This document shows, piece after piece, positions 3,001-37,078 of a stretch of 64,000 nt of DNA. Each line of letters begins with the position of its first letter. Position 1 is the first letter of the stretch. The stretch is from assembly GCF_041886205.1 (NCBI RefSeq), contig NZ_CP169029.1. One strand, written 5' to 3'. Position numbers and translations under genes: made by a program. Source of the stretch: Escherichia coli. Its GTDB lineage: Bacteria; Pseudomonadota; Gammaproteobacteria; Enterobacterales; Enterobacteriaceae. The notes beneath the pieces were generated by a model. It was given only the letters and a program-made list of their open reading frames with translations. It was not told the origin of the DNA and made no database searches.

Positions 3001-3441
3001 CGCCGCGCACCAGCCACAGTGACTCGCTGCGGCTGTAGCCGTCCTCGCCGGGAAACAGCGTGCTCAAAGTGACAGGCTCCTGCCGCCGTTGTCAGCTGAG
3101 TATCAGTGCGTCATCGCGCAGCTGTAAGCGGATATCCGCAGGCGCTTTCAGCCGGGGCCGAGGCTCCCCACCGGCGCGGGCGTTCTGGTCCGGTAGCTGC
3201 TGTAGGTGCGGGAGAGGATGAACGGCAGCGGGCGCGGGCAGGGCGATGTCGGTCTCGCCGGGCAGGCACCTTCGCACCGAGCAGCGGATTGACCGGATGG
3301 CCGGACGTCACCCCGCCGGACACGCCGAACAGGCCACGCCGGTGGGCGCGCCGATGCGCACCCGGCTGCCGAACCCTCGGACAATGCCGCGGCCGCCTTG
3401 CGGGTCATGTCGCCCTGACGCGCCGCCGGTTTTCCGCTCAT
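1..3441 (-). pseudogene. Rhs-family YD-repeat protein, N-terminal and core part only; C-terminal toxin domain lies beyond the window start; reading frame broken many times
   Basis: Minus-strand ORF starting at 3441 begins MSGKPAARQGDMT (typical Rhs N-terminus); downstream fragments carry YD-repeat sequence (e.g. YGYDDKGRLTGE, RYEYNAAGDLTAV, ITTPDGR); fragments lie in different frames. Confidence 0.8.
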
Positions 3442-3479
3442 GAATCAATTCCTCTTTCTGCTTATTAATAATGGCTTGT

Positions 3480-5693
3480 CTGTTACTGCACCAGTACCGT
3501 TTTAACAGGTGCACCCGACCCTAGTACTGCTCGCATATCCGGCGTATCCGGGGGGTGAATCTTTCGGCATCAGGCGTCATCCGGTGCGGGATCGTCGAGG
3601 CTGCCACAGTTCCAGTTAATCAACTGGCGCAGTCACCGTTCACCTGCTCGACTCACCCTGCCAGAGTGAATGTGCGTGCCGTTGAGAAAGATTGCTGCCG
3701 TCCTTCGTCAGCACCAGCCTTGCCTCACCACAGCAGAGCTCCAGATGCCACAGGCGAGATAAACTCGCGGTCTGCCCGTGTGTCAGTCCTTCATTCGTCT
3801 TCTACCACCGGTGAAAGGCGGCGTGATTCCCCACATTGACGTCTGTAGCCCAGCCCGACCCTGAACCAGTGATCCGAAGCAGCCCTGCCTGTGAGGACTG
3901 CAACAGACGCCACCGAGGTGTGGTCGTAATGCCGCCTACCGTCGTCTGGTACGCCCACCGTCAGCGCACGAACGAGTCGCCACCGTTTCCACTCTGAACA
4001 GAACCCACGTTGATGATCTGGTTACCGCCCACCGTCTCCACACTGGTTCATCCCCCACTCGTCTGTATCTGATTAACGCCAATGTTCTGGATCTGGTTAT
4101 TGGTACCGGCGATCGCCTGGTTGTTGCCAATGGTCTCGGCATGGTTGTTTATCACATCCGTGGTGCGGTTATTCAGCACCTCAGGTGTTCATCTGTCTTC
4201 TGCGCGTGGATGTAGACCTGTTCTTTCCCTGTCGCATCGTCAAACTTCAGTTCATTAAACCCGCTGCCCGTATACGTTTTCGAGCGGATGGTCATCTGCG
4301 TCTTCGTTCCGGCAGGCTGCCGGGTGTGCGGTTTTCCTGGTGGTAGGTACGCCCCATAATGATCGGCTGGTCCGGATCGCCGTTGAGGAAGTCCACAATC
4401 ACCTCCTGACCCACACGCGGTATCGCCAGGTGGCCAAAACCGGTGCCTGCCCACGCCTGTGCCACACGGATCCAGCACGAACTGTCTTGGTCTGCCGGGT
4501 TATAACGGTCCCAGTTGAACTTCACCCGCACGCGACCATGTTCGTCGCAGAAGATTTCCTCGCCTGCCGGTCCTGTCACGACAGCGCTCTGCGGGCCGTC
4601 AACCAGCGGTTTCAGCAACGGCTGTGGTCGCCATGTTCTGTCTGCCGGGATCACCGCAAAATGGTTATCCAGCGCCGTCCCCGCTCCCTGCCGTCCTGGC
4701 ACCGCCTGTGGCTGTTCGCCGTGCAGTTCACTTGCCACCACCTGCCATTCCCGGTTCAGGTTCGCCTGCGGATGCCCCGTCAGCACAATTCGCCGTCCCG
4801 GCCATATCTCCGGCGAGCGGCTTGTTCCCCGCGCGGTTTCTGCGTTGTTGCGCCAGCCGTCCATCTGCCAGCGGGCAAAGTTCTGCCCGTGGGCACTCTC
4901 GAAACGTCCGGGGTAGTCATACACTTCATACTGCGTGCGCTGGTAGTCCTGGTGCTGGCCTTCCTGTTCAAAACGTCCGGCCCAGCCGGGTCGCTTAAAG
5001 GTGTAGTCTTTGTGTTCACCACGGAAGAAGGGCGGATTTGTGCGCTGTAGCGGAACTGGCTGATGCAGAGGGTGCTCACCTCGGTACGGGTGTTCGGATT
5101 CCAGGGATTTCAAAAGATTCGGGCAGATAACGCGACTGTGTCGCACAGCACCAGGCTCTGGTCGGTACTTTTGTAAGCATGCTCCTCATAAAAGAAGATG
5201 CCTTCCTCCGCCGCCATCCGGCACAGGAAATCGTAATCAGTCTCACCGTACTGGACACAAAACTCACGGGAAGGATGCGGCTCGCTGAACAGCGGACTCC
5301 ATTCGGTCACCCCGTTTTCCTGCAACATCGTGCCGAGGATGCTTTCGATGTCCTCGTTCTGGAAGATACGGAAGTTCTGGCGCAGACCGGCACGCCACAG
5401 CGGCGGGTGCACCTTCATGCTGTACAGCATCTGGTTTTTGTCGTTCTCCCCCAGTTCAAACCAGGTCACCACACCTTCACCCGGCGCTGTACGTCATCGC
5501 CCTGCCATACCGTCAGGTAGGCCATTTTGTCCAGCACCTGCGCAAATTCAAGGGAGAGAAACTGCTGGCTGACCAGAGAGAGATCGAGGGAAAAAAGCGA
5601 AGAGAGTGACTGGTTCAGATGAAAGGAAACCACCGCAAACGCATCCGGTGGCAGGCCGTCCACTTCCAGTGTGAAACGTAATCCGGTTGACAT
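3480..5693 (-). pseudogene. vgrG: VgrG spike protein (TssI), frameshifted; 3' end approximate
   Basis: Fragments at 5466-5693, 5110-5472, 4292-5146 and 4173-4478 (minus) read MSTGLRFTLEVDGLPPDAF..., ...GRTYHQENRTPGS..., MTIRSKTYTGSGFNELKFDDATGKEQVYIHAQK, matching VgrG gp27/gp5 modules; frames differ between fragments. Confidence 0.8.
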
Positions 5694-5850: not shown

Positions 5851-5890
5851 AATACAAAAACAGCATCCGGCCTGATAGCCGGATGCTGTT
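5851..5890 (-). terminator. Rho-independent terminator immediately downstream of hcp, upstream of vgrG
   Basis: Inverted repeat cagcatccggc / gccggatgctg (5861-5888) with 6 nt loop, followed on the minus strand by a T-run (A-run 5851-5860 on plus). Confidence 0.55.
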
Positions 5891-5898
5891 GGCTTAAC

Positions 5899-6425
5899 TT
5901 ATGCTTCCAGCGGTGCGCGCCAGTCGTCGGCACCGGAGGTGCCAGATTTGACGTGTTCCCATTCAATTTTCGCGGTAGGCCAGTGAAACTTCGAGCAACT
6001 GGGTGAACTCGCGTTTCGCCGGGTCCTGGCAATGCGGCATATGCAGTTCTCATATCGCCAATCGTCGAATCAGTCAGGCGGGGAGCGAGATAGTGCTCCT
6101 GTTTGCCTTCCACAGAGGTACGCCACCAGTGAAGTTCAGCGGTTGGGCAGCATTTCGCCGGAGGCCAGTGCGTTGTACATCAGCGGAACCGCTTTGTTCA
6201 GCGCCACGGTAAAAATGAAAGGCTTGTGAGCGCACGCTGACCCGCAGGCTGACCGGACTGAGGATCGGTCCGCACAGATAACGTTATGCAGGAATTCCTG
6301 CACCAGCATCTCCGTCTTCGTGCCCCTGCACATAGATGTTGCCGACAGAATCAGCGGTAAATGCACCTGCAGTAATATTTCCCTGGGTCTGACCAGTGAT
6401 GGAAGATATAACACGGTGTTGGCAT
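5899..6425 (-). pseudogene. hcp: Hcp (TssD) tube protein, frameshifted
   Basis: Minus-strand translation from 6425 begins MPTPCY... and ends ...PLEA*; internal fragments ...EMLVQEFLHNV...HKPFIFTVALNKAVPLMYNALASGEML and VEGKQEHY...LTDSTIGDMRT match the Hcp family; length 527 nt is not a multiple of 3. Confidence 0.8.
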
Positions 6426-7134
6426 TTGTAAACTCCTTGTTAACGTGGTTAATTACTACTTACAATGACCTGCCGTTAATCCCAGACAGGCAGATGCAGC
6501 TCACTTCACGGAACCGCATCATTTTTCAGTATTTTTTACATACAAACCGAGCTAGAATTTACGGTTGTCGTAAAAACTATTTTTAAAATCATTACATAAC
6601 TCTCATTCAGCAAATAACTTAATAATATATATCTGGATAGCCATACCCAACTGTTCAAAGTCCGTATTGCCTCCATAAAATGGCCAACAGCGCGAACCAA
6701 CTGAAAATAAATATTGTATTTATCCTTTCTGAATTATCATTTTGATAATTTTTGAAGATATTCCTTAAAAATACCCACTTAATCAATCACAGTAAACACA
6801 TGTATAAATAAGCAATCATTAGATTAGCTCATGTTTAATGAAATTATTATATACTTCAATAAGTTACATAAAAAATCTATATTTAAATTATTGCCATAAT
6901 ACACCTGACGCGAATTGCACAGGTTCACACAATCTATTTAACGCTTGCAGAATACCCCTCTTTACCATCGATAAAAAGTCCTTTTCTTATTTATTTTGAA
7001 GCGTAAAATGCGGGGTGATGAAGGAGCTGGTGATTTTATTTTCACCGCCATTAGGGCGGCATTGCCGATATTTTTTTGCGGTACAAATATGCCGTGTTCA
7101 TGGCCTGTACGAGATAACATGACGGATTACTTTT
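6426..7134. promoter_or_regulatory. AT-rich divergent intergenic region between hcp-vgrG-rhs (minus) and tssB operon (plus); presumed promoters
   Basis: ~700 bp non-coding, visibly AT-rich compared with flanking genes; sits between divergently oriented T6SS genes; no specific promoter elements verified. Confidence 0.35.
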
Positions 7135-7646
7135 ATGAGCAAAAAATTTGAAGGCAGCGTCGCGCCTCGCGAGCGTATTAACATATCGTATGTCCCAAAA
7201 ACAGATGGCCAGACGGCTGAAGCGGAACTTCCGCTTAACATGCTCGTTGTCGGCGATACCGGAAATACGCAGGAAAACATCCCCACTGGATGAACGTCAG
7301 GCAGTTTCCGTTAACAAGCACAATTTCGGTGCAGTGATGGCTGAAGCAGCCATTGGCCTCAATTTTACTGTCCCCGCCACGCCTGAAGGGAAGCACAACA
7401 GACGATGAACTGAATGTGGCGCTGAATATCAAATCACTGGAAGCTGACTCTTTCACCAGATAGCGTGGCCCGGCAGGTTCCGGGAAGCGAGTAGTAATCG
7501 CTGGAACTGCGTGAAGCACTGACTGCACTGAAGGGGCTCGGCTGGGTAAACCTTCCGGCATTCCGTACCCAGCTCCAGGCATTGCTGGAAAATGAAGAGT
7601 CCCGCGAGCAGTTGCTCAAAGAAATCGGTCTGGTGAGCAATAAATA
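7135..7646 (+). pseudogene. tssB: TssB (VipA) small sheath subunit, frameshifted
   Basis: Translation from ATG 7135: MSKKFEGSVAPRERINISYVPKTDGQTAEAELPLNMLVVGDTGNTQENIP then stop; continues in another frame as LDERQAVSVNKHNFGAVMAEAAIGLNF; TssB-family N-terminal signature. Confidence 0.75.
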
Positions 7647-7958
7647 ACCACCACGATTCCATTAAACAGGGTTATCCAGGACATGACGGCACACAAAAAT
7701 ATCTCCGGGACATACCACCTCTCTGTTGCAGACATTCTGCAGGTGCTTTACCAGGTATGTTTCAGCCCGTCCGTTGAAATCAACCAGGACTGGTGTGGCT
7801 GCGCTGATTACAACACTGGATCGCCGTATCAGTGATCTATTGGATGAGATTATCCATTTTTGTGAGTTTCAGCAGAGCGCGTCGCACTGGCAGCGCGTAC
7901 TTCACTGATGGCGAAAGGCCGGTTCCAGAAACACAGCTAAAACAGAAGGATTTTCAGT

Positions 7959-9461
7959 ATGTCTTTACAGGAAGAGGAACTCTGTTCCCAGTCATGCCGG
8001 GCAGCCTGGAGCAGGCATCGTCGCTGCTTGATCAAATCATGGCACAGACCCGTATTCAGGCCCGGTTCGGAAGGTTATGACGTTGCCCGCCAGGGTGTGA
8101 CAGCCTTTATTGCCAGCATCCTGCAATCCACTGCATCTGCCGAACCGGTCAATAAACTGGCCGTGGACAGCATGATTGCAGATATTGATGAACGCATCAG
8201 CCGCCAGATGGATGTCATCATCCAGGGCGCGCCTGCCTTTCAGCAGGTCGAATCGTTCTGGCGCTCACTGAAAACCATGGTGGATCGCGTTGATTTCCGT
8301 GAAAACATCAAGGTCAACGTGCTTCATGTCACCAAAGCAGGGAACTTCTGGAAGACTTTGAGTTTGCGCCAGAAATTATTCAGTCCGGATTTGATCAAGC
8401 ACGTTTATTCGTCCGGATTCGGACAGTTTGGCGGTGAACCCATCGCTGCCGTGCTGGGCGCTTATGAGTTCAAAAATACCGCGCCTGACATGAGACTGTC
8501 GGCAAGACGCCAGTGCCGTGGGCGCAACGGCGCACGCACCGTTCCTGTCCTCCGTTTCCCCGGCGGAGTTTATGGGGCTGAACTCGTGGACCGAACTGCC
8601 TAATATCAAAGATCTTTATGCCATCTTTGAAGGTCCGGCCTACACCAAATGGCGCGCCCTGGCGTGACTCGGAAGATTCGCGCTGGATTCAGGGCTTACG
8701 GCACCCCGTTCTTCCTGCTTCGCCAGCCCTGGTCACCAGCAGATAACCCTGTTAAGAAGCTTTAACTATCACGAAGATGTCAGCCAGAACCACGAAGATT
8801 ATCTGTGGGGTAATACGGCCTGGATGCTGGCATGCAATATCGCAGACAGTTTTGCCGAATACCGCTGGTGTCCAAACATTATCGGCCCGCAAAGCGGCGG
8901 CGCGGTGAAAGATCTGCCGGTGCATCTGTTCGAAACGATGGGGCAGATTCAGGCCAAAATCCCAACCGAGGTGCTGGTCACCGATCGCCGCGAATTTGAA
9001 CTGGCTGAAGAGGGTTTTATCACCCTGACCATGCGTAAAGACTCTGATAATGCAGCCTTTTTCTCTGCAAACTCGGTACAAAAACCTGAAGCACTTTCCG
9101 GGAAAAGATGCAGAAACCAACTATAAGCTGGGTCTGCAGTCTCCCTGATCTCTTCATCATCAACCGGTTAGCGCACTACATCAAGGTGTTGCAGCGTGAA
9201 CATACTGGGGTCATGGAAAGAAAGGAGCGACTTAGAGAGGGCAGCTCAGACACCCTGGATCCGTCAGTATGTTGCCGACCAGGAAAACCCGCCGGACGGA
9301 CGTGCGCAGCCCGCAAACCTCTGCGCGCAGCCAGAGTTGAGGTTATGGATGTGGAAGGCGAACCCGGCTGGTACCAGGTTGCGCTAAGCGTGAGGCCTCA
9401 TTTTAAATTTATGGGGGCAAATTTTGAGCTTTCCCTGGTCGGCCGGTTAGACAGGGAGTAA
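7959..9461 (+). pseudogene. tssC: TssC (VipB) large sheath subunit, several frameshifts
   Basis: Fragments SLLDQIMAQTRIQ, EGYDVARQGVTAFIASIL, PVNKLAVDSMIADIDERISRQMDVIIQGAPAFQQVESFWRSLK and C-terminal ARVEVMDVEGEPGWYQVALSVRPHFKFMGANFELSLVGRLDRE match TssC; pieces are in three frames. Confidence 0.8.
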
Positions 9462-26616: not shown

Positions 26617-27099
26617 ATGGCAAATATAAGTTATTTATCTTTGAGTGGAGAGACACAAGGGCTGATTTCAGCAGGTTGCTCAACGCTTGATTCTGTCGGA
26701 AACAAAGCGCAGCCAGAACATAAAGATCGAGATCATGGTTTATGCGTTAATGCATTCCATCTCAAGAAGTCAAAATGTCAATCATCATGAATTAATTATC
26801 ACCAAACCGGTTGATAAATCCTCACCATTGCTGGCAAAAGCACTTAGTGACAATGAAAAAATGGCAATATGTGAATTTATACTCTACCGAACCAGTAAAG
26901 CGGGTATTTACCAGCCTTATTATAAAATAAATCTGTCAAAAGCCCGAATATCAAGTATTGATTTTGTCACACCGCATGCTGTCCTGGAAAAGAACTGGAA
27001 CCACAGGAGAGAATTGCCTTTATTTATGAAGATATTTCCTGGGAGCATACGTTAGCCGGTACGAATGCAATGAGTAAATGGCAGGATCGTGTACAGTAA
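26617..27099 (+). pseudogene. hcp: Second Hcp (TssD) copy, two apparent frameshifts
   Basis: Strong RBS (aaggag) then MANISYLSLSGETQGLISAGCSTLDSVGNKAQPEH; continues in other frames as ...SISRSQNVNHHELIITKPVDKSSPLLAKALSDNEKMAICEFILYRTSKAG... and ...RIAFIYEDISWEHTLAGTNAMSKWQDRVQ*, all matching Hcp. Confidence 0.8.
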
Positions 27100-27142
27100 C
27101 TTACTGTAATAACATAATAAATTACTATTGCGGAGAGATAAA

Positions 27143-28039
27143 ATGGCTGGTTTAAGGAATAACAACAACACACAGAATGCACAGTGGGCTGATTATGTGG
27201 GTGACATTCTTCGGGGGGCTCAGCCGATAAACCAGCTAGTACCTCAGCACCCTTATCTTAACGACGTCCCACTCATTGATGAGTTAAGGCATCAGAACAC
27301 TCATCATGTTATTCTCTTGACACTTGATGTTGCAAAAAAAATACTCAGCCCAATAACATCATTTGATTACATTCATTTTATCACTACACATCCTTCAGGT
27401 ATAAAAGATACACTCGCCTGGTTAGTTAACGCGGGTAAATTAATGACTGAGTTTGATGACAATGGGAAAATTATATTTAACCTTAATGCCTTAAAGTATA
27501 CAAAAGCAAGTTACTTTGAAATACTTGGAGAGAAATATATAAAAATCACAACATCCAGCCCCTGGCTTTTAGAAAAGCTCGGTAAATATATTTTCTCTTC
27601 ACGAGCGCCTCAAGTTCTGGAACTCGCTATTGGCTGGCGAGGAGCTTTATCTGAATCAATAAAAGGAGTTAAGTTCTGTATCTGGTTTTCAGTAGCCTGG
27701 AGAACCATAGAATTTATTATGAGTTCAGAGCGAGATCTGGTTAATTTTCTTGGCGATTTTTCAATGGATGTGGCCAAAGCAGTTATAGCCGGTGGTGTTG
27801 CAACCGCTATTGGAAGCCTGGCTTCTTTTGCCTGTGTTAGCTTTGGCTTTCCAGTAATTCTTGTCGGAGGAGCAATTTTACTGACAGGGATAGTGTGTAC
27901 AGTTGTTTTAAATGAAATCGATGCTCAATGCCATTTATCAGAAAAATTAAAATATGCAATTAGAGATGGACTAAAACGGCAACAGGAACTTGATAAATGG
28001 AAAAGGGAAAACATGACTCCATTTATGTATGTTCTTTAA
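27143..28039 (+). CDS. Hypothetical protein with C-terminal glycine-zipper transmembrane hairpin; candidate Hcp-linked membrane-targeting effector
   Basis: Intact ORF (frame opens at 27128; ATG 27143 has a better RBS ggagag); AT-rich; C-terminal hydrophobic helices AVIAGGVATAIGSLASFACVSF and FPVILVGGAILLTGIVCTVVL; immediately downstream of hcp2. Confidence 0.6.
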   Translation: MAGLRNNNNTQNAQWADYVGDILRGAQPINQLVPQHPYLNDVPLIDELRHQNTHHVILLTLDVAKKILSPITSFDYIHFITTHPSGIKDTLAWLVNAGKLMTEFDDNGKIIFNLNALKYTKASYFEILGEKYIKITTSSPWLLEKLGKYIFSSRAPQVLELAIGWRGALSESIKGVKFCIWFSVAWRTIEFIMSSERDLVNFLGDFSMDVAKAVIAGGVATAIGSLASFACVSFGFPVILVGGAILLTGIVCTVVLNEIDAQCHLSEKLKYAIRDGLKRQQELDKWKRENMTPFMYVL

Positions 28040-28067
28040 CACTCCACCCGTGATATGAGGATTAACC

Positions 28068-28433
28068 ATGCGTTTACATGTTAAATTAAAAGAGTTTCTT
28101 TCGATGTTTTTTATGGCCATATTATTTTTCCCTGCATTCAATGCTTCTTTGTTTTTTACCGGAGTTAAACCTCTATATTCAATAATAAAATGCTCCACGG
28201 AAATATTTTATGATTGGAGAATGTTGATTCTGTGCTTTGGTTTCATGTCGTTTTCCTTTTTAAATATTCATGTAATTTTACTTACGATAATAAAATCATT
28301 CTTAATCAAAAAAACGAAGGTAGTCAATTTCGCCACAGACATAAACAATACAGCTAACTCTTATATTTTTACTAATAGCTATCGTAATAGCACCTTTAAT
28401 AGCTCCTTTTGTCACAGGATATGTCAATGCTAA
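28068..28433 (+). CDS. Small hypothetical inner-membrane protein (121 aa); candidate immunity protein
   Basis: Intact ORF with RBS (gagga) and two hydrophobic segments (FFMAILFFPAFNASLFF; MLILCFGFMSFSFLNIHVILLTII); directly follows the putative effector gene. Confidence 0.5.
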   Translation: MRLHVKLKEFLSMFFMAILFFPAFNASLFFTGVKPLYSIIKCSTEIFYDWRMLILCFGFMSFSFLNIHVILLTIIKSFLIKKTKVVNFATDINNTANSYIFTNSYRNSTFNSSFCHRICQC

Positions 28434-28703
28434 TTATCACCCCTGCGGTAATAATGCGGGGATTTTCCCAGCGAGCAATCTGATATTAAAAATGGCATGA
28501 AATGTAGTAACTGAATATATTTCTCGCAAGGAAGATTCAGCAGTTAAATAACTAAATATTCTAAAACAAACAGTTTTTAACTCCGGTATTCCATGTCCTT
28601 TCTTGCACTGTCTTTGTCAAGAAAGATTTCTTATGCAAAGAATTTTGTATTATTGCCGCCCAGAGATTCCTGGCGGCAGATAGAATCTATTATTGATAGC
28701 GAG

Positions 28704-29486
28704 TTAACCAAATCTTTTCACCATCGCTTTATAGGTCTTTTGCTTAAGTTGCATGATTTGCTGCTCTGTCATATCAGTCGTACTGGCTTCATTCTTGTCG
28801 GGCAATGGTGGAAGCACTTTATATTCATACTTCACCGGCGACCAGGTACGTAGCCCACTCACCTGTTGCCACATCCACCAGCGTGAAACGTACCAGGTAG
28901 CGCAGGGAGATAGCGTCGGTGAGTTTTTCATTTTTATAGTCGGACCATACTGTTGATTTCAGCGCAGAGTCATATTTTCCTGTCTGCAACGTATCCTGGA
29001 AAACAATAATCGCTTTCTGATGCCCTTTTGCAGCCCACAAAACGCAGTGCCTGCATCCAGTTCATATTCTCAGCACTGGCAACATCCTCGTTCTCATTTT
29101 TATCTTTGTTTTTGTTACAAGTCAGAGGCTTTTGCCTGTCCGGGATACTCAGAAAAGAACGTGGAAACAGTATAATATTTTCGCATCTCCTCCTGCATAA
29201 TGGTTTCCGGTGCGCGGTTGCCGGATTGAACAAGTATTACAGGAGAATTAAGGGGAACGCGGAACTCATCTCCATCAAGCGCAGCTTGAATATCCTCTTC
29301 GGATACGGCCAGAGTGGTTTCATTACCGAATAAATCTTTGTCTGTCAGTTGCTGGGGAGTGTTTTTATTAATATTACTTTGTGTGACTTGAGCTTTTTTC
29401 TTCTTTTCATCAATAGAAGATTCAGAGGCACATCCTGCAAGCAGCGAGAATAACACACATATGCAACAAAGCTTTTTTGAATTCAT
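28704..29486 (-). pseudogene. yafT: Lipoprotein YafT-like gene adjacent to aspV, frameshifted
   Basis: Minus-strand ORF from 29486 begins [21 protein letters not shown] (lipobox); continues in other frames down to 28704 (~261 codons total); position next to tRNA-Asp as for K-12 yafT. Confidence 0.65.
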
Positions 29487-29789: not shown

Positions 29790-29816
29790 CTCTGAACTCA
29801 TTTTCATGAGTGAATC

Positions 29817-29893
29817 TGGCGGAACGGACGGGACTCGAACCCGCGACCCCCTGCGTGACAGGCAGGTATTCTAACCGACTGAACTACCGCTCC
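29817..29893 (-). tRNA. aspV: tRNA-Asp (GUC)
   Basis: 77 nt; reverse complement reads GGAGCGGTAGTTCAGTCGGTTAGAATACCTGCCTGTCACGCAGGGGGTCGCGGGTTCGAGTCCCGTCCGTTCCGCCA. Confidence 0.97.
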
Positions 29894-30025
29894 GCGTTGT
29901 GTTCCGTTGGGAACGAGGCGAATATTACGGATTGCCTCGTCCTTCGTCAATGGTTTTTCTCATCTTTTGAATCATTTGCTGCAAAAATCGCCCAAGTCGC
30001 TATTTTTATCGCCTTTTACATGTAT

Positions 30026-30757
30026 TTATGCCCGCCAGAGGCAGCTTCCGCCTTTCTTCTGCACCAGATCGAGACGGGCTTCATGTGCTGCAAGCTCGTC
30101 ATCTGTCGCAAAAACAACGCGTAACTTACTTGCCTGACGTACAATGCGCTGAATTGTTGCTTCACCTTGTTGCTGCTGTGTCTCTCCTTCCATCGCAAAA
30201 GCCATCGACGTTTGACCACCGGTCATCGCCAGATAAACTTCCGCAAGGATCTGGGCATCGAGTAATGCCCCGTGCAGCGTTCGTTTACTGTTATCTATTT
30301 CGTAGCGGGCACATAACGCATCGAGGCTGTTGCGTTTACCGGGAAACATTTTCCTCGCCACCGCAAGGCTATCGGTGACCTTACAGAAGGTATTAGTCTT
30401 CGGAATATCGCGCTTAAGCAACGAGAACTCGTAGTCCATAAAGCCGATATCGAACGCTGCGTTATGGATCACCAACTCCGCGCCGCGGATATAGTCCATG
30501 AACTCATCGGCTACTTCGGCAAACGTGGGCTTATCGAGCAAAAATTCATCGGCAATACCATGTACGCCAAAGGCTTCCGGATCCACCAGCCGATCGGGTT
30601 TGAGATAAACATGGAAGTTATTGCCCGTCAGGCGACGGTTCACCACTTCAACGGCCCCAATCTCAATGATCTTGTGGCCTTCATAGTGCGCACCAATCTG
30701 GTTCATACCGGTGGTTTCGGTATCGAGAACGATCTGGCGTGTAATTGCAGTGCTCAT
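30026..30757 (-). CDS. dnaQ: DNA polymerase III epsilon subunit (3'-5' proofreading exonuclease)
   Basis: 243 aa from [19 protein letters not shown]...; DEDDh exonuclease motifs; divergent from rnhA as in E. coli. Confidence 0.95.
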
Positions 30758-30821
30758 AGCGGTCATTTATGTCAGACTTGTCATTTTACAGTTCGATTCA
30801 ATTACAGGAAGTCTACCAGAG

Positions 30822-31289
30822 ATGCTTAAACAGGTAGAAATTTTCACCGATGGTTCGTGTCTGGGTAATCCTGGACCTGGGGGTTACGGCGCTATTTTAC
30901 GCTATCGCGGACGCGAGAAAACCTTTAGCGCAGGCTACACCCGCACCACCAACAACCGTATGGAGTTGATGGCCGCTATTGTCGCGCTGGAGGCGTTAAA
31001 AGAACATTGCGAAGTCATTTTGAGTACCGACAGCCAGTATGTCCGCCAGGGTATCACCCAGTGGATCCATAACTGGAAAAAACGTGGCTGGAAAACAGCA
31101 GACAAAAAACCAGTAAAAAATGTCGATCTCTGGCAACGTCTTGATGCTGCATTGGGGCAGCATCAAATCAAATGGGAATGGGTTAAAGGCCATGCCGGAC
31201 ACCCGGAAAACGAACGCTGTGATGAACTGGCTCGTGCCGCGGCGATGAATCCCACACTGGAAGATACGGGCTACCAAGTCGAAGTTTAA
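30822..31289 (+). CDS. rnhA: Ribonuclease HI
   Basis: 155 aa from [28 protein letters not shown]...; the ORF track's upstream extension overlaps dnaQ and is rejected. Confidence 0.95.
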
Positions 31290-32008
31290 GCCTGTGGTTT
31301 ACGACATTGCCGGGTGGCTCCAACCGCCTGGCGAATTCGTGGCTTGTTTTTACTCTGTTTCATCGGATTTAGCGTTAAAGGAATAGTCCGTTTCCGGGCA
31401 ACAATAAGTTGTAAGCAACCAAGCGCAGGAATATGCGCATTCAATAGTTTTCCTCCGTGTTTGTTCCACGGGAGAACGTGGAAACGGCTGGCGTGTAGCA
31501 CTTCAAAATTCAACAAAGAGAGCCAGTCCAGTTGCCGCATCAGAGTAAACATCCGGCTGTTATAGGGCGAGGTTTTTCGCAATACCGGCACAAGTTTGCG
31601 TAATCCCATTAAACTGATGGGATTGAAGCCACTAATCACCAGCCAGCCATCATCAATCAGTACCCGATCGGCTTCACGTAATAAACGATGCGGATCGGTG
31701 CACCACGGCAATGTATGTGCCAGTAGACAAACATCAACGGATTTATCGGCAAAAGGAAGATGAAGTGGATCCGCCTGCACCTGGACGGGCATTCCTTGCG
31801 CAGAAACATTCACTTGATGAGAAACCGCGCACGCTTCGCAATTGATTTCTGCGCTTAAATTGCCAATCTTAAGCAGATGAAAACCATACATTTTAGTGAA
31901 CCACGGGTTGAGCTGGCGCTCCAGCGCCTTGCGATAAAGCTCTCCCCAGGGCAAATCGCCCCAGCGATCAGGAGCCACGACAGTTTGAGGGACTCTTGCC
32001 GGTTTCAT
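31286..32008 (-). CDS. yafS: SAM-dependent methyltransferase YafS
   Basis: ORF 31286-32026 minus; start chosen at MKPARVPQ... (240 aa); synteny between rnhA and gloB. Confidence 0.85.
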
Positions 32009-32038
32009 CACAACCTTCCGTTTCACACTGAGAGGTAA

Positions 32039-32797
<759 letters not shown>

Positions 32798-32868
32798 TAA
32801 AACTTTCTTGTCATCGGCTCCGTTCGCCGTTATGATCGGTCGTCTTTTAAGCAACTATTGACACACAC

Positions 32869-34227
32869 ATGAAGGCAAAAGCGATATTACTCGCCTCTGT
32901 CCTGCTCGTGGGTTGCCAGAGTACCGGCAACGTTCAACAGCACGCACAGAGCCTTTCTGCAGCTGGTCAAGGGGAAGCAGCAAAGTTTACAAGTCAGGCA
33001 CGATGGATGGACGATGGGACGTCTATCGCGCCAGATGGTGACTTGTGGGCTTTCATTGGCGACGAGCTAAAGATGGGAATTCCGGAAAATGACCGGATTC
33101 GCGAACAGAAACAGAAATATTTACGCAATAAGAGCTATCTCCACGATGTAACTTTACGGGCAGAGCCGTATATGTACTGGATAGCCGGGCAAGTTAAAAA
33201 ACGTAACATGCCTATGGAACTGGTACTACTACCCATAGTGGAGAGCGCTTTTGATCCTCACGCAACGTCTGGCGCCAATGCCGCAGGCATCTGGCAGATC
33301 ATTCCGAGCACGGGGCGCAATTATGGTTTGAAACAGACCCGCAATTATGACGCGCGTCGCGATGTTGTTGCTTCAACAACTGCCGCGCTGAACATGATGC
33401 AGCGTCTGAACAAGATGTTTGACGGCGACTGGCTTCTGACCGTAGCGGCTTATAACAGCGGCGAAGGTCGGGTCATGAAGGCAATTAAAACGAACAAAGC
33501 GCGTGGGAAATCCACGGACTTCTGGTCGTTACCGTTGCCGCAGGAAACGAAGCAGTACGTGCCTAAAATGCTGGCATTGAGTGATATTCTCAAAAACAGC
33601 AAGCGTTATGGCGTACGTCTGCCAACGACCGATGAAAGCCGTGCTCTGGCGCGTGTGCACCTGAGCAGCCCGGTTGAAATGGCGAAGGTTGCAGATATGG
33701 CGGGGATTTCCGTCAGCAAGCTGAAGACATTCAACGCTGGCGTGAAAGGCTCCACGCTGGGCGCAAGTGGCCCGCAGTACGTGATGGTGCCAAAGAAGCA
33801 TGCAGATCAACTGCGTGAATCTCTGGCTTCAGGCGAAATTGCTGCTGTACAGTCGACGCTGGTTGCCGACAATACGCCGCTTAACAGCCGTGTTTACACC
33901 GTACGCTCTGGCGACACGCTTTCAAGTATCGCTTCACGTCTCGGCGTAAGCACCAAAGATTTGCAGCAGTGGAACAAACTGCGCGGATCTAAGCTGAAGC
34001 CAGGCCAAAGTTTGACGATTGGTGCAGGCAGTAGCGCACAGCGGTTGGCAAACAACAGCGATAGCATTACGTATCGTGTGCGCAAAGGCGATTCGCTTTC
34101 AAGCATTGCTAAACGCCACGGCGTGAACATCAAAGATGTGATGCGCTGGAACAGCGACACTGCGAATCTGCAACCAGGCGATAAGCTGACGTTGTTTGTG
34201 AAAAACAACAACATGCCAGATTCCTGA
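32869..34227 (+). CDS. mltD: Membrane-bound lytic murein transglycosylase D
   Basis: 452 aa; lipoprotein signal (LLVGC), transglycosylase domain and C-terminal LysM repeats (YTVRSGDTLSSIA..., YRVRKGDSLSSIA...). Confidence 0.93.
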   Translation: MKAKAILLASVLLVGCQSTGNVQQHAQSLSAAGQGEAAKFTSQARWMDDGTSIAPDGDLWAFIGDELKMGIPENDRIREQKQKYLRNKSYLHDVTLRAEPYMYWIAGQVKKRNMPMELVLLPIVESAFDPHATSGANAAGIWQIIPSTGRNYGLKQTRNYDARRDVVASTTAALNMMQRLNKMFDGDWLLTVAAYNSGEGRVMKAIKTNKARGKSTDFWSLPLPQETKQYVPKMLALSDILKNSKRYGVRLPTTDESRALARVHLSSPVEMAKVADMAGISVSKLKTFNAGVKGSTLGASGPQYVMVPKKHADQLRESLASGEIAAVQSTLVADNTPLNSRVYTVRSGDTLSSIASRLGVSTKDLQQWNKLRGSKLKPGQSLTIGAGSSAQRLANNSDSITYRVRKGDSLSSIAKRHGVNIKDVMRWNSDTANLQPGDKLTLFVKNNNMPDS

Positions 34228-34241
34228 CAAACCAGATAATA

Positions 34242-34274
34242 AAAAGGCACCGATTCCCCCGGTGCCTTTTTTAT
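34242..34274. terminator. Bidirectional rho-independent terminator between convergent mltD and yafE
   Basis: Stem ggcaccg / cggtgcc with 7 nt loop, flanked by A-run upstream and T-run downstream. Confidence 0.7.
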
Positions 34275-35045
34275 TTATGCCGCTTTATGTGCTTCTACCA
34301 TGATGATATCACTGGTGAAAGAGCCATCATTCTGCAAGGAAAAATACGTTCTCACCTCTGTCGATGCGCTCTGTTGGTAAATGCGAATAGCGTCTACTAA
34401 CGCTTCTGGCGTACGCATTCTCACGACCCATGAAGAAAATTCCAGCGGTAACTTATCTGTAATTAAATTATCAACTATCAGATTGGCTTCATTGATTAAC
34501 GTCAACCACTCACCGCTGGCGTAGTTTCGTACGTGAGAGGTATCGCGTAATGCTTCTACCGTCTGTAACCAGATGTCGCGCACTGGGTGGCCCGGAGACA
34601 TTACGTCCATCACAATCAGCCTACCGCCAGGTTTCAATATCCTATTCACTTCACGCAGTGCTGCACCAACATCATGCCAGTGATGGGCAGAATAACGGCT
34701 GATAACAATATCAAATGCGTTATCGGCAAATGGCAGACTTTCGGCATAACCCTGGCGGGTGGTGATATTTTTCAGTTGCCGGGCTTCGGCAGCTTGTGCC
34801 ACGACATCCAGCATTTGGGCAGATAAGTCATACGCCACCACCGCGCTCACGTTTTGCGCAGCGACAAAGCTGGCATGCCCTGCTCCGCAGCCCATATCAA
34901 GTACACTTGCATCAGGATAATCAGCCAGACGCACCGCCAGGCGCTGTAAATCTCGTCCGGATGCATGTACGGTACTAGTCAGATATTCGCTGGCTTGAGA
35001 GCTAAACTGCTTTTCTACGTGGTCATGGTGGGATTGTGTTGTCAT
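34275..35045 (-). CDS. yafE: Class I SAM-dependent methyltransferase YafE
   Basis: 256 aa; SAM-binding motif VLDMGCGAGH; synteny between mltD and yafD. Confidence 0.88.
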   Translation of the reverse strand: MTTQSHHDHVEKQFSSQASEYLTSTVHASGRDLQRLAVRLADYPDASVLDMGCGAGHASFVAAQNVSAVVAYDLSAQMLDVVAQAAEARQLKNITTRQGYAESLPFADNAFDIVISRYSAHHWHDVGAALREVNRILKPGGRLIVMDVMSPGHPVRDIWLQTVEALRDTSHVRNYASGEWLTLINEANLIVDNLITDKLPLEFSSWVVRMRTPEALVDAIRIYQQSASTEVRTYFSLQNDGSFTSDIIMVEAHKAA

Positions 35046-35122
35046 TGCGCTGTCCTTTTGTTGTTTGAGTATAAAAGGGCAGCGCCAAACGTTGGTCTGC
35101 CCTGTGGCAGACCTGACATACC

Positions 35123-35974
<852 letters not shown>

Positions 35975-36163
35975 CTACTGTTATAGGGATTTTAGCTCAC
36001 TCTTTCAACGAGCAATTGTATATTGTTATGTAAGCAAGTGCTTACACCGGTCAGAATTTTGCTCATTATTGAGAACATTAAATCGGATGACATATCACGC
36101 ATCCTGATGGTTTAATGACAAATAAATTCAAAATATCTCTTCTATTTTGCAACAGGAGCAAAA

Positions 36164-37078
36164 ATGAAAGCCACGTCGGAAGAACTCGCCATTTTTGTTT
36201 CGGTCGTCGAAAGCGGCAGCTTTAGCCGGGCAGCGGAACAATTAGGGCAAGCAAACTCAGCGGTAAGCCGGGCGGTGAAAAAGCTGGAGATGAAACTTGG
36301 CGTTAGCCTGCTTAATCGGACCACGCGACAACTTAGCCTGACGGAAGAAGGCGAGCGTTATTTTCGTCGCGTACAGTCAATTTTGCAGGAGATGGCAGCG
36401 GCAGAATCAGAAATTATGGAGACGCGTAATACACCGCGTGGACTGTTACGGATCGATGCCGCAACTCCAGTGGTGCTGCACTTTCTAATGCCGTTAATTA
36501 AGCCTTTCCGTGAACGCTATCCGGAAGTCACTTTATCGCTAGTCTCCTCCGAAACGATTATTAATTTGATCGAAAGAAAAGTGGATGTCGCGATACGCGC
36601 CGGTACGTTAACGGATTCCAGCTTACGTGCCAGACCGTTATTTAACAGTTATCGAAAAATTATCGCCTCCCCCGATTATATTTCCCGCTACGGGAAGCCA
36701 GAAACGATCGACGATTTAAAGCAACATGTTTGCCTGGGATTCACTGAACCCGCTTCCCTCAATACCTGGCCGATAGCCTGTAGTGATGGACAATTACATG
36801 AGGTGAAGTACGGTTTGTCATCCAATAGTGGGGAAACACTGAAACAGCTTTGCCTGAGTGGCAACGGGATTGCGTGTTTGTCCGACTACATGATCGACAA
36901 AGAAATCGCTCGCGGAGAATTGGTGGAGTTAATGGCAGATAAAGTGTTGCCAGTGGAAATGCCATTCAGTGCAGTCTATTACAGCGACCGTGCGGTAAGT
37001 ACGCGCATCCGGGCTTTTATCGATTTCCTTAGCGAGCATGTAAAAACAGCTCCCGGAGGAGCTGTCAGAGAGGCTTAA
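36164..37078 (+). CDS. yafC: LysR-family transcriptional regulator YafC
   Basis: 304 aa; N-terminal HTH ([35 protein letters not shown]); divergent from yafD, convergent with dkgB. Confidence 0.92.

Follow-up and report, generated by a model that had tools for sequence, protein, structure and literature searches.

A catalogued Tme/Tmi-family toxin and ykfM pair beside hcp at the aspV end of the Escherichia coli T6SS-1 island

What do two AT-rich open reading frames (ORFs) directly downstream of an hcp gene contribute to the island, encoding a type VI secretion system (T6SS), in which they lie? This question was raised by a window of 64,000 nucleotides from Escherichia coli (NCBI RefSeq assembly GCF_041886205.1, contig NZ_CP169029.1), the term window denoting the whole stretch of DNA that was analysed, which includes the right-hand end of the T6SS-1 island at its insertion site, the tRNA-Asp gene aspV. 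The genes there run in the order tssM, tagA/VasL, hcp, an ORF of 298 aa, an ORF of 121 aa, a yafT remnant, aspV, dnaQ and rnhA, and the G+C fraction falls from 0.55–0.60 in the structural genes tssM and tagA to 0.30–0.40 over 26.6–28.6 kb. The first ORF extends from an ATG at 27143 to a stop at 28039, with a GGAGAG ribosome-binding site ahead of it, and the second (28068–28433) has GAGG ahead of its start. An initial annotation had interpreted the two as an undescribed effector/immunity module, and the ORF coordinates, the ribosome-binding sites and the AT-richness that it reported are all real. It had also called both ORFs intact, which was not confirmed: the reading frames exist, but the second ORF and the hcp copy (hcp2) are frameshifted and the first ORF is short by 6 residues. 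A scan for promoters and terminators found no more sites than expected by chance. We put at roughly 0.85 the probability that hcp2, a Tme-family membrane-disrupting antibacterial effector and the Tmi-type protein YkfM form the cargo end of the aspV T6SS-1 island.

Identity of the toxin and of its downstream partner

The toxin/YkfM pair belongs to a family already on record, Tme/Tmi, and was catalogued there in 2020. The family is defined by a C-terminal domain in which a nearly invariant DxxK motif is followed by a membrane helix and a further Asp, by T6SS genes upstream and by downstream DUF1240-like multi-helix immunity proteins, named Tmi (Fridman et al. 2020, Nat Commun 11:1085, PMC7046647). 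Supplementary Data 5 of that paper lists WP_000908052.1 of E. coli O103:H2 12009 (NC_013353.1, 239484–240398), with a Tme domain at residues 122–277 (E = 3.7e-36) and a Phobius membrane helix at 234–256, and gives as its neighbours the Hcp WP_001284199.1, 43 bp upstream, and WP_001236643.1, a protein of 159 aa with three membrane helices, 9 bp downstream. These are the proteins annotated at the O103:H2 12009 locus that matches the window, namely an Hcp of 160 aa, a hypothetical protein of 304 aa (WP_000908052.1) and YkfM of 159 aa (WP_001236643.1), followed by a 261-aa protein in the yafT position. Membership of the family was set by its authors as C-terminal homology to residues 161–310 of Tme1, by the family position-specific scoring matrix (PSSM), at E < 1e-8 with at least 80 aa aligned, and WP_000908052.1 falls within these limits, as read from the authors' own RPS-BLAST table. 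Because the exact protein is listed there as Tme, together with its flanking genes, the term 'undescribed' in the initial annotation was wrong. As a discovery the E. coli pair therefore counts for little, since the family, the motif, the immunity partner and the E. coli protein itself were all published in 2020.

Our searches recovered the same family. Scans of both proteins against Pfam, NCBIfam and PADLOC returned nothing significant, and no homologue with a housekeeping function, which would have spoken against a toxin, was found. A word-indexed search with the toxin recovered a narrow enterobacterial group only, with E. coli, Salmonella (62 % identity) and Rahnella (39 %). A hidden Markov model built from nine toxin members and scored against 1.84 billion representatives detected 700 cluster representatives, 343 of them at E ≤ 1e-10, and the region common to these relatives is the C-terminal part, approximately profile positions 120–285. 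A cluster look-up among these hits did not recover Tme1 itself. Two relatives (P0114 and P0127) carry the toxin domain at the C-terminus, fused to PAAR, and in two more (P0147 from Shewanella, and P0178, named 'MIX and LysM ... protein') the domain is joined to LysM and to the N-terminal part of VPA1263, a MIX effector of Vibrio. Judged from domain architecture, fusion to PAAR or MIX is what characterizes a toxin domain of the T6SS. The toxin family profile gave no match when searched against PDB sequences.

The toxin gene, tme (27143–28039, plus strand), is the full-length form of K-12 yafU and encodes 298 aa in the window and 304 aa in the reference. Its Tme domain, taken at the published limits of residues 122–277 and checked by translation, occupies 27506–27973. 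The DxxK motif, D209-V-A-K212 (27767–27778), was placed by homologue alignment and likewise checked by translation; among 120 diverse homologues D209 is conserved in 110 and K212 in 118, and the Asp that closes the motif, D260 (27920–27922), in 117. Between K212 and D260 lies a hydrophobic helical hairpin (residues 213–259, 27779–27919), broken at P237, with a Kyte–Doolittle maximum of 2.71 and small-xxx-small spacing in the segments AGGVATAIG and ATAIGSLAS, which bears out the pair of hydrophobic C-terminal helices with glycine-zipper-like spacing that had been noticed at the outset. The AlphaFold2 (AF2) model made from the 120-sequence alignment has a mean predicted local distance difference test (pLDDT) score of 77.5 and a predicted template modelling (pTM) score of 0.59. 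It comprises a helical N-terminal part, a small beta-sheet at residues 100–152 and long helices that include 165–193, 199–234 and 238–263; the four long helices between 165 and 290, the hairpin among them, reach block-mean pLDDT values of ~80–95.

One element of the Tme domain differs in the E. coli/Salmonella clade. Residues 137–143 of the toxin (27551–27571) read KITTSSPWLLEKLG in this clade, with T137 and L143. Tme relatives carry a GYxGxR motif at this site (KITGYAGLRRIL), with G137 in 111 and R143 in 109 of the 120 sequences; T137/L143 sets this clade apart within an element that is highly conserved elsewhere.

The N-terminal region of the toxin (residues 1–121, 27143–27505) is specific to an Hcp-linked enterobacterial subgroup and may serve in loading or delivery. 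Its motif, W..Y.G..LRG..PINQL.PQHPY, is shared by E. coli, Salmonella, Rahnella, Kluyvera and Photorhabdus, and other family members have PAAR or MIX/LysM in place of these ~120 residues. The first ~45 residues (27143–27280) are near-identical among toxins that are only ~36 % identical elsewhere (P0016, P0018, P0019 and P0060), and many stand-alone N-terminal stubs of 37–116 aa occur in Yersinia pestis, Photorhabdus, Serratia, Morganella and Xenorhabdus (P0250, P0252, P0255, P0262 and others). On alignment evidence, the pattern resembles recombination taking place behind a conserved delivery segment. A search for other toxins with the conserved N-terminal 45–68 residues, which would have pointed to a polymorphic delivery domain, returned fragments and the 37–116-aa stubs only, and no alternative C-terminal toxin.

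The second gene is ykfM (28068–28551, plus strand), a pseudogene as written in the window, where its reading frame holds up to codon 92. In the reference, ykfM begins 9 bp beyond the stop of the toxin gene and encodes three membrane helices (10–33, 52–76 and 92–118) and a conserved YHPC...Y(I/V)KNGxxC tail. Tmi proteins are encoded directly downstream of the toxin, have 3–6 membrane helices and are DUF1240 (PF06836) or DUF1240-like; reference YkfM has the position and the helices of a Tmi protein, and the window copy keeps the first two helices only. The earlier description of a two-helix membrane protein of 121 aa with its own ribosome-binding site was therefore correct as to the ORF and its GAGG, but the two helices are a frameshift product, arising because the frameshift removes the third helix and the Cys tail of a protein that truly has three. 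When the YkfM family was aligned by hhalign to five proteins encoded downstream of Tme homologues, the match had 97.9 % probability (E = 5e-13, 132 columns). Four of these five match PF06836 at E ≤ 1e-3, the best at 4e-41, and a C-terminal Y..C...Y(I/V)K...C motif is common to YkfM and bona fide DUF1240 proteins. On the strength of the profile–profile match YkfM is DUF1240-like, a category used by the Tme authors, and it is Tmi-type in the sense that PMC7046647 applies the name Tmi to downstream multi-helix DUF1240-like proteins, although the table itself gives YkfM no Tmi label. The functional reading first offered for the locus, in which an Hcp-linked toxin that targets membranes precedes a small immunity protein of the membrane, is supported.

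Proposed mode of action, gene neighbourhoods and the K-12 remnants

Members of the Tme family are T6SS-secreted toxins by experiment: Tme1 and Tme2 of Vibrio are toxic only from the periplasm, where they cause loss of membrane potential and propidium iodide uptake, and each is neutralised only by its cognate Tmi (PMC7046647). By homology, the 34-kDa E. coli effector would be loaded on or in the Hcp2 tube via its conserved N-terminal ~120 residues and fired by T6SS-1 into a neighbouring Gram-negative cell, in which the Tme domain would insert hairpin 213–259 into the inner membrane from the periplasmic side. Insertion would be expected to dissipate the membrane potential and permeabilize the cell, as the Vibrio toxins do. 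YkfM, predicted to reside in the inner membrane with three helices and a periplasm-facing two-Cys tail, would protect sister cells and, on the model of Tmi1 and Tmi2, probably neutralizes its cognate toxin specifically. We infer delivery by Hcp2 because the hcp linkage is kept across four genera and the N-terminal motif is limited to the Hcp-linked subgroup.

Several points weigh against this reading. A toxin of 34 kDa is large for carriage in the Hcp lumen, and the putative Hcp dependence is drawn from gene linkage only. A direct hmmscan of YkfM against Pfam gave no PF06836 match, and the AF2 model of the toxin is of moderate quality, with no specific solved structural neighbour. The activity of the E. 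coli/Salmonella clade could differ from that of the Vibrio toxins because T137 and L143 replace G and R. In the window, the immunity gene, hcp2 and the T6SS machine are disrupted, and the searchable literature holds no experimental report on the E. coli pair.

The gene neighbourhoods argue for a T6SS association. In E. coli hcp lies 43 bp upstream of the toxin gene inside the T6SS-1 island. Salmonella has, in the same aspV island, the order tssM-tagA-hcp-toxin-DUF1240-...-DUF1240-yafT-dnaQ, Photorhabdus has an orphan hcp adjoining the toxin and three DUF1240 genes, and the order in Rahnella is toxin-DUF1240-hcp. Arrays of two or three DUF1240 genes after one toxin gene were seen at the Salmonella enterica aspV locus (5926–8010) and in Photorhabdus (5860–7140), and the extra copies may be spare or orphan immunity genes. 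The position of the toxin gene directly after tagA/VasL and hcp, at the end of a structural operon, could also suit an accessory or structural component of the T6SS, such as an Hcp2-specific adaptor or a membrane anchor, and some Salmonella and Photorhabdus homologues have been automatically named 'ImpA domain-containing protein'. However, neither Pfam nor NCBIfam assigns the 304-aa protein to ImpA or any other T6SS structural family, its G+C content is unlike that of the structural genes, homologues occur with only orphan hcp and DUF1240 genes for company, and the several DUF1240 copies paired with it are what an immunity array typically looks like. A structural role is, on this evidence, very improbable.

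Across 5,426 complete E. coli genomes, the toxin N-terminal part was found in 2,573, the tssH-tssM-tagA stretch in 2,665 and ykfM in 2,997. These counts indicate that the toxin tracks T6SS-1 and that only the immunity gene outlives the machine. A pair that was widespread outside any T6SS context would have undermined the effector/immunity interpretation, and this is not what was seen for the toxin; only ykfM reaches further. The prevalence of ~47 % for the toxin and ~55 % for the immunity gene suggests that the pair is probably a main factor in T6SS-1 compatibility between one E. coli and another.

It had been asked at the outset whether the K-12 ORFs yafU and ykfM are relatives of the pair. 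Alignment revealed that the second ORF is ykfM itself and that yafU is the truncated toxin: K-12 YafU (pseudogene b0218, 112 aa) corresponds to toxin residues 193–304 with 100 % identity, including the DxxK motif and the hairpin, and K-12 ykfM (b4586) is an intact orthologue of the second gene with 2 amino-acid differences. Compared to the window, a deletion ending at ISAs1 (yafF) has cost K-12 the T6SS, hcp2 and the first 186–192 toxin codons. The end of this deletion (yafU–yafF, 3247–3879 of the K-12 locus) falls within the toxin gene, near codon 187, and adjoins a fragment of ISAs1 (H-repeat, yafF); in O103:H2, where the island is intact, a copy of ISAs1 is likewise present past the Rhs gene at the island's far end.

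Both K-12 genes are uncharacterized in databases, and it could be argued that they encode ordinary inner-membrane or stress-tolerance proteins that merely sit beside a T6SS, with no toxin or immunity role. UniProt gives full-length homologues the name 'Inner membrane protein yafU', K-12, a strain without T6SS-1, becomes easier to kill with nalidixic acid, mitomycin C and peroxide when it carries ykfM::Tn5, and ykfM is present in ~420 genomes that do not have the toxin N-terminal part. Independent retention of orphan ykfM was considered as a sign of selection and rejected, since 371 complete genomes share the single K-12 ISAs1 deletion junction and most of the retention is therefore clonal. Set against an ordinary membrane function are also the fusion of the same C-terminal domain to PAAR and MIX delivery domains, the hcp linkage kept in three further genera, in two of which no large T6SS cluster surrounds it, the experimentally established secretion and toxicity of the Tme family, and the lack of a housekeeping match in Pfam, NCBIfam or PADLOC. 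We consider such a function highly unlikely for either gene.

If YkfM is a Tmi-type protein, the orphan ykfM of K-12 and of the ~420 complete genomes without T6SS-1 could be a working immunity gene, a suggestion that we make only tentatively. If true, it would shield these strains from the Tme toxin, still fired by roughly half of E. coli. Loss of ykfM may be made difficult by the remaining yafU fragment, which has the DxxK motif, the hairpin and a Met of its own, and this could explain the hypersensitivity of the K-12 ykfM::Tn5 mutant to several lethal stresses. Two long-standing K-12 y-genes acquire an evidence-based meaning, yafU as what is left of a T6SS membrane toxin and ykfM as its immunity gene. 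Annotation lags behind, with 'hypothetical protein' in RefSeq and 'inner membrane protein YafU' in UniProt, and no paper in the searchable literature ties ykfM or yafU to type VI secretion. That yafU is the stump and ykfM the orphan immunity gene was not found stated explicitly in the literature; the statement is of use for annotation but is no discovery.

State of the copy in the window

Base-by-base alignment of the window to E. coli O103:H2 12009 showed that the differences are mainly single-base insertions or deletions (indels). The stretch 26400–29600 matches 4,190 of the 5,426 complete E. coli genomes, with a best identity of 99.1 %. The Hcp/TssD tube protein gene hcp2 (26617–27099, plus strand) carries an additional G at 26729 and lacks an A at 26987, which puts 86 codons out of frame with a stop at 26788–26790, and it appears in the ORF list as pieces of 57 aa and 122 aa; its reference orthologue, WP_001284199.1, matches TIGR03344 (2e-60, 203 bits against a cut-off of 58.9). 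In the toxin ORF an additional T at 28035 costs the last 6 residues (NTPPVI). In ykfM an additional A at 28343 leaves only residues 1–92 authentic, and three further 1-bp insertions precede the ancestral stop at 28551. As a result of this frameshift, the 121-aa product consists of YkfM residues 1–92 and 29 out-of-frame residues, and is devoid of the third membrane helix and the conserved tail. All the T6SS core genes of the island are frameshifted except vasI, tssJ and tagH. The module is therefore not workable as written in the window, with hcp2, ykfM and nearly all T6SS core genes frameshifted.

One interpretation is that the frameshifts are genuine and that the window holds a dead relic of a T6SS-1 island, including a dead immunity gene. 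The frameshifts are indeed limited to the island (1–29810), none occurs in the coding core flank, which over 7 kb matches other genomes at 100 % identity, and public assemblies also contain ykfM products that are frameshifted in other ways. Over 21 kb of core, outside the rRNA operon, the only indel is a one-base gap at 29815, just outside the tRNA-Asp gene. However, from 5 kb on in the island there are 116 one-base insertions and 18 one-base deletions, the inserted base equals a neighbouring base in 19 of 43 cases, as expected by chance and not from slippage, and substitutions relative to the reference are rarer than indels over most of the island. The indels of the island are common to none of the 5,426 complete genomes; the exact 121-aa product has no public record, and exact matches to the 298-aa product are genes cut off at contig ends. 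The excess of insertions, the random nature of the inserted bases, the scarcity of substitutions and the lack of any other genome with these indels suggest sequence error of the insertion type, or added noise, that affects the island only, as opposed to natural decay. We regard genuine decay as less likely. On either interpretation, this sequence by itself gives no basis for calling the module functional. Random 1-bp insertions are so abnormally frequent in the island that pseudogenes should be called from it with caution.

The end of the island provides some further observations. The yafT lipoprotein gene remnant (28690–29486, minus strand), an island-end neighbour of ykfM, differs from O103:H2 12009 by six indel events, and the syntenic Salmonella gene carries PF25851 (YafT). 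A yafT homologue is kept at the island end in both E. coli and Salmonella and is AT-rich, like the toxin/immunity pair. The island boundary is the tRNA-Asp gene aspV (29817–29893, minus strand), as located by ARAGORN, and homology to strains with a different island begins at 29811. Strains whose core flank is 100 % identical to that of the window (29811–37000), such as E. coli 6EVA (NZ_CP138428.1), have a different type VI cluster at aspV, with tssB/C, tagJ/tagK, tssE–G and an ImpA-family gene, and homology breaks right beside the tRNA. The window therefore joins a 6EVA-type core to a T6SS-1 island closest to that of O103/B1-type strains, a pairing seen in none of the 5,426 complete genomes.

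Comparison with known systems

Several toxins that act on membranes offer points of comparison. The pore formers of colicin type, including VasX, and Tse4 share the inner-membrane target and depolarization with the proposed action of the E. coli toxin, and the glycine-zipper toxin Tse4 has in addition the small-xxx-small spacing seen in the hairpin. A search of the toxin for a colicin-type pore-forming fold or Pfam domain, as in VasX, found none.

The Serratia pair Ssp6/Sip6 is similar in its setting, and its immunity protein, Sip6, is presumably located in the outer membrane. Ssp6 is an enterobacterial depolarizing T6SS toxin, probably Hcp-dependent, that is encoded beside an orphan hcp with a small membrane immunity gene downstream (Mariano et al. 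2019, PMC6889166). It differs in being described by its authors as a small effector, and Sip6 has two predicted membrane helices and is called 'membrane-associated'. Homologues of Ssp6 are reported in some E. coli clinical isolates (PMC6889166).

Ssp4/Sip4 of Serratia marcescens resembles the E. coli pair in several respects, as Ssp4 is a helical T6SS toxin of ~300 aa that has C-terminal membrane helices and a single beta-sheet, shares its periplasmic site of action with the Tme family, has a multi-helix immunity protein in the inner membrane and includes Hcp- or VgrG-linked members among its relatives (Reglinski et al. 2025, PMC12669606). It differs in that Ssp4 forms cation-selective pores that leave membrane integrity intact and in that Sip4 has four membrane helices. 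The similarity raises the alternative that delivery and immunity are as proposed above, but that the toxin forms small, regulated, ion-selective pores, as Ssp4 and Ssp6 do, with depolarization and no loss of membrane integrity. In support of this, the 13 predicted helices and one beta-sheet of the toxin, with long C-terminal helices that include hydrophobic ones, echo the published Ssp4 model, and both are toxins of ~300 aa with known or expected periplasmic action, frequent Hcp linkage and a multi-helix inner-membrane immunity protein. Ssp4-like proteins are, by the definition of the Ssp4 authors, those with a HMMER score above 100 to Ssp4 (SMDB11_3980). The toxin was looked up indirectly in the resulting homologue list (Dataset EV2, PMC12669606), which contains no protein from Escherichia, Salmonella or Photorhabdus, even though full-length homologues from E. 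coli are present in UniProt, and none of the 12 AlphaFold-database neighbours of the toxin model is in the list. Since the list lacks both Escherichia and these 12 structural neighbours, the toxin was not filed under Ssp4, and the Ssp4 authors class Tme1 and Tme2 separately. Homology between Tme and Ssp4 is neither claimed by those authors nor shown here, and the two are set apart by list look-up only. Taken together, we judge an ion-selective pore unlikely, and assignment to the Tme family remains our preferred reading.

Among Tme/Tmi systems themselves, the E. coli pair has its own features. The N-terminus of the toxin is a conserved region of ~120 residues found only in Hcp-linked enterobacterial members, and Tme1 is a RIX-domain effector. 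RIX domains lie at effector N-termini (PMC10435454). The E. coli/Salmonella clade is without the G137 and R143 that are kept in ~91–92 % of relatives, and YkfM falls below the Pfam DUF1240 threshold. In other respects the pair is like Tme1/Tmi1 and Tme2/Tmi2 of Vibrio parahaemolyticus (PMC7046647): it shares the Tme domain and its DxxK–membrane helix–D motif, a T6SS gene (hcp) directly upstream, a downstream DUF1240-like protein with three membrane helices, and relatives fused to PAAR or MIX.

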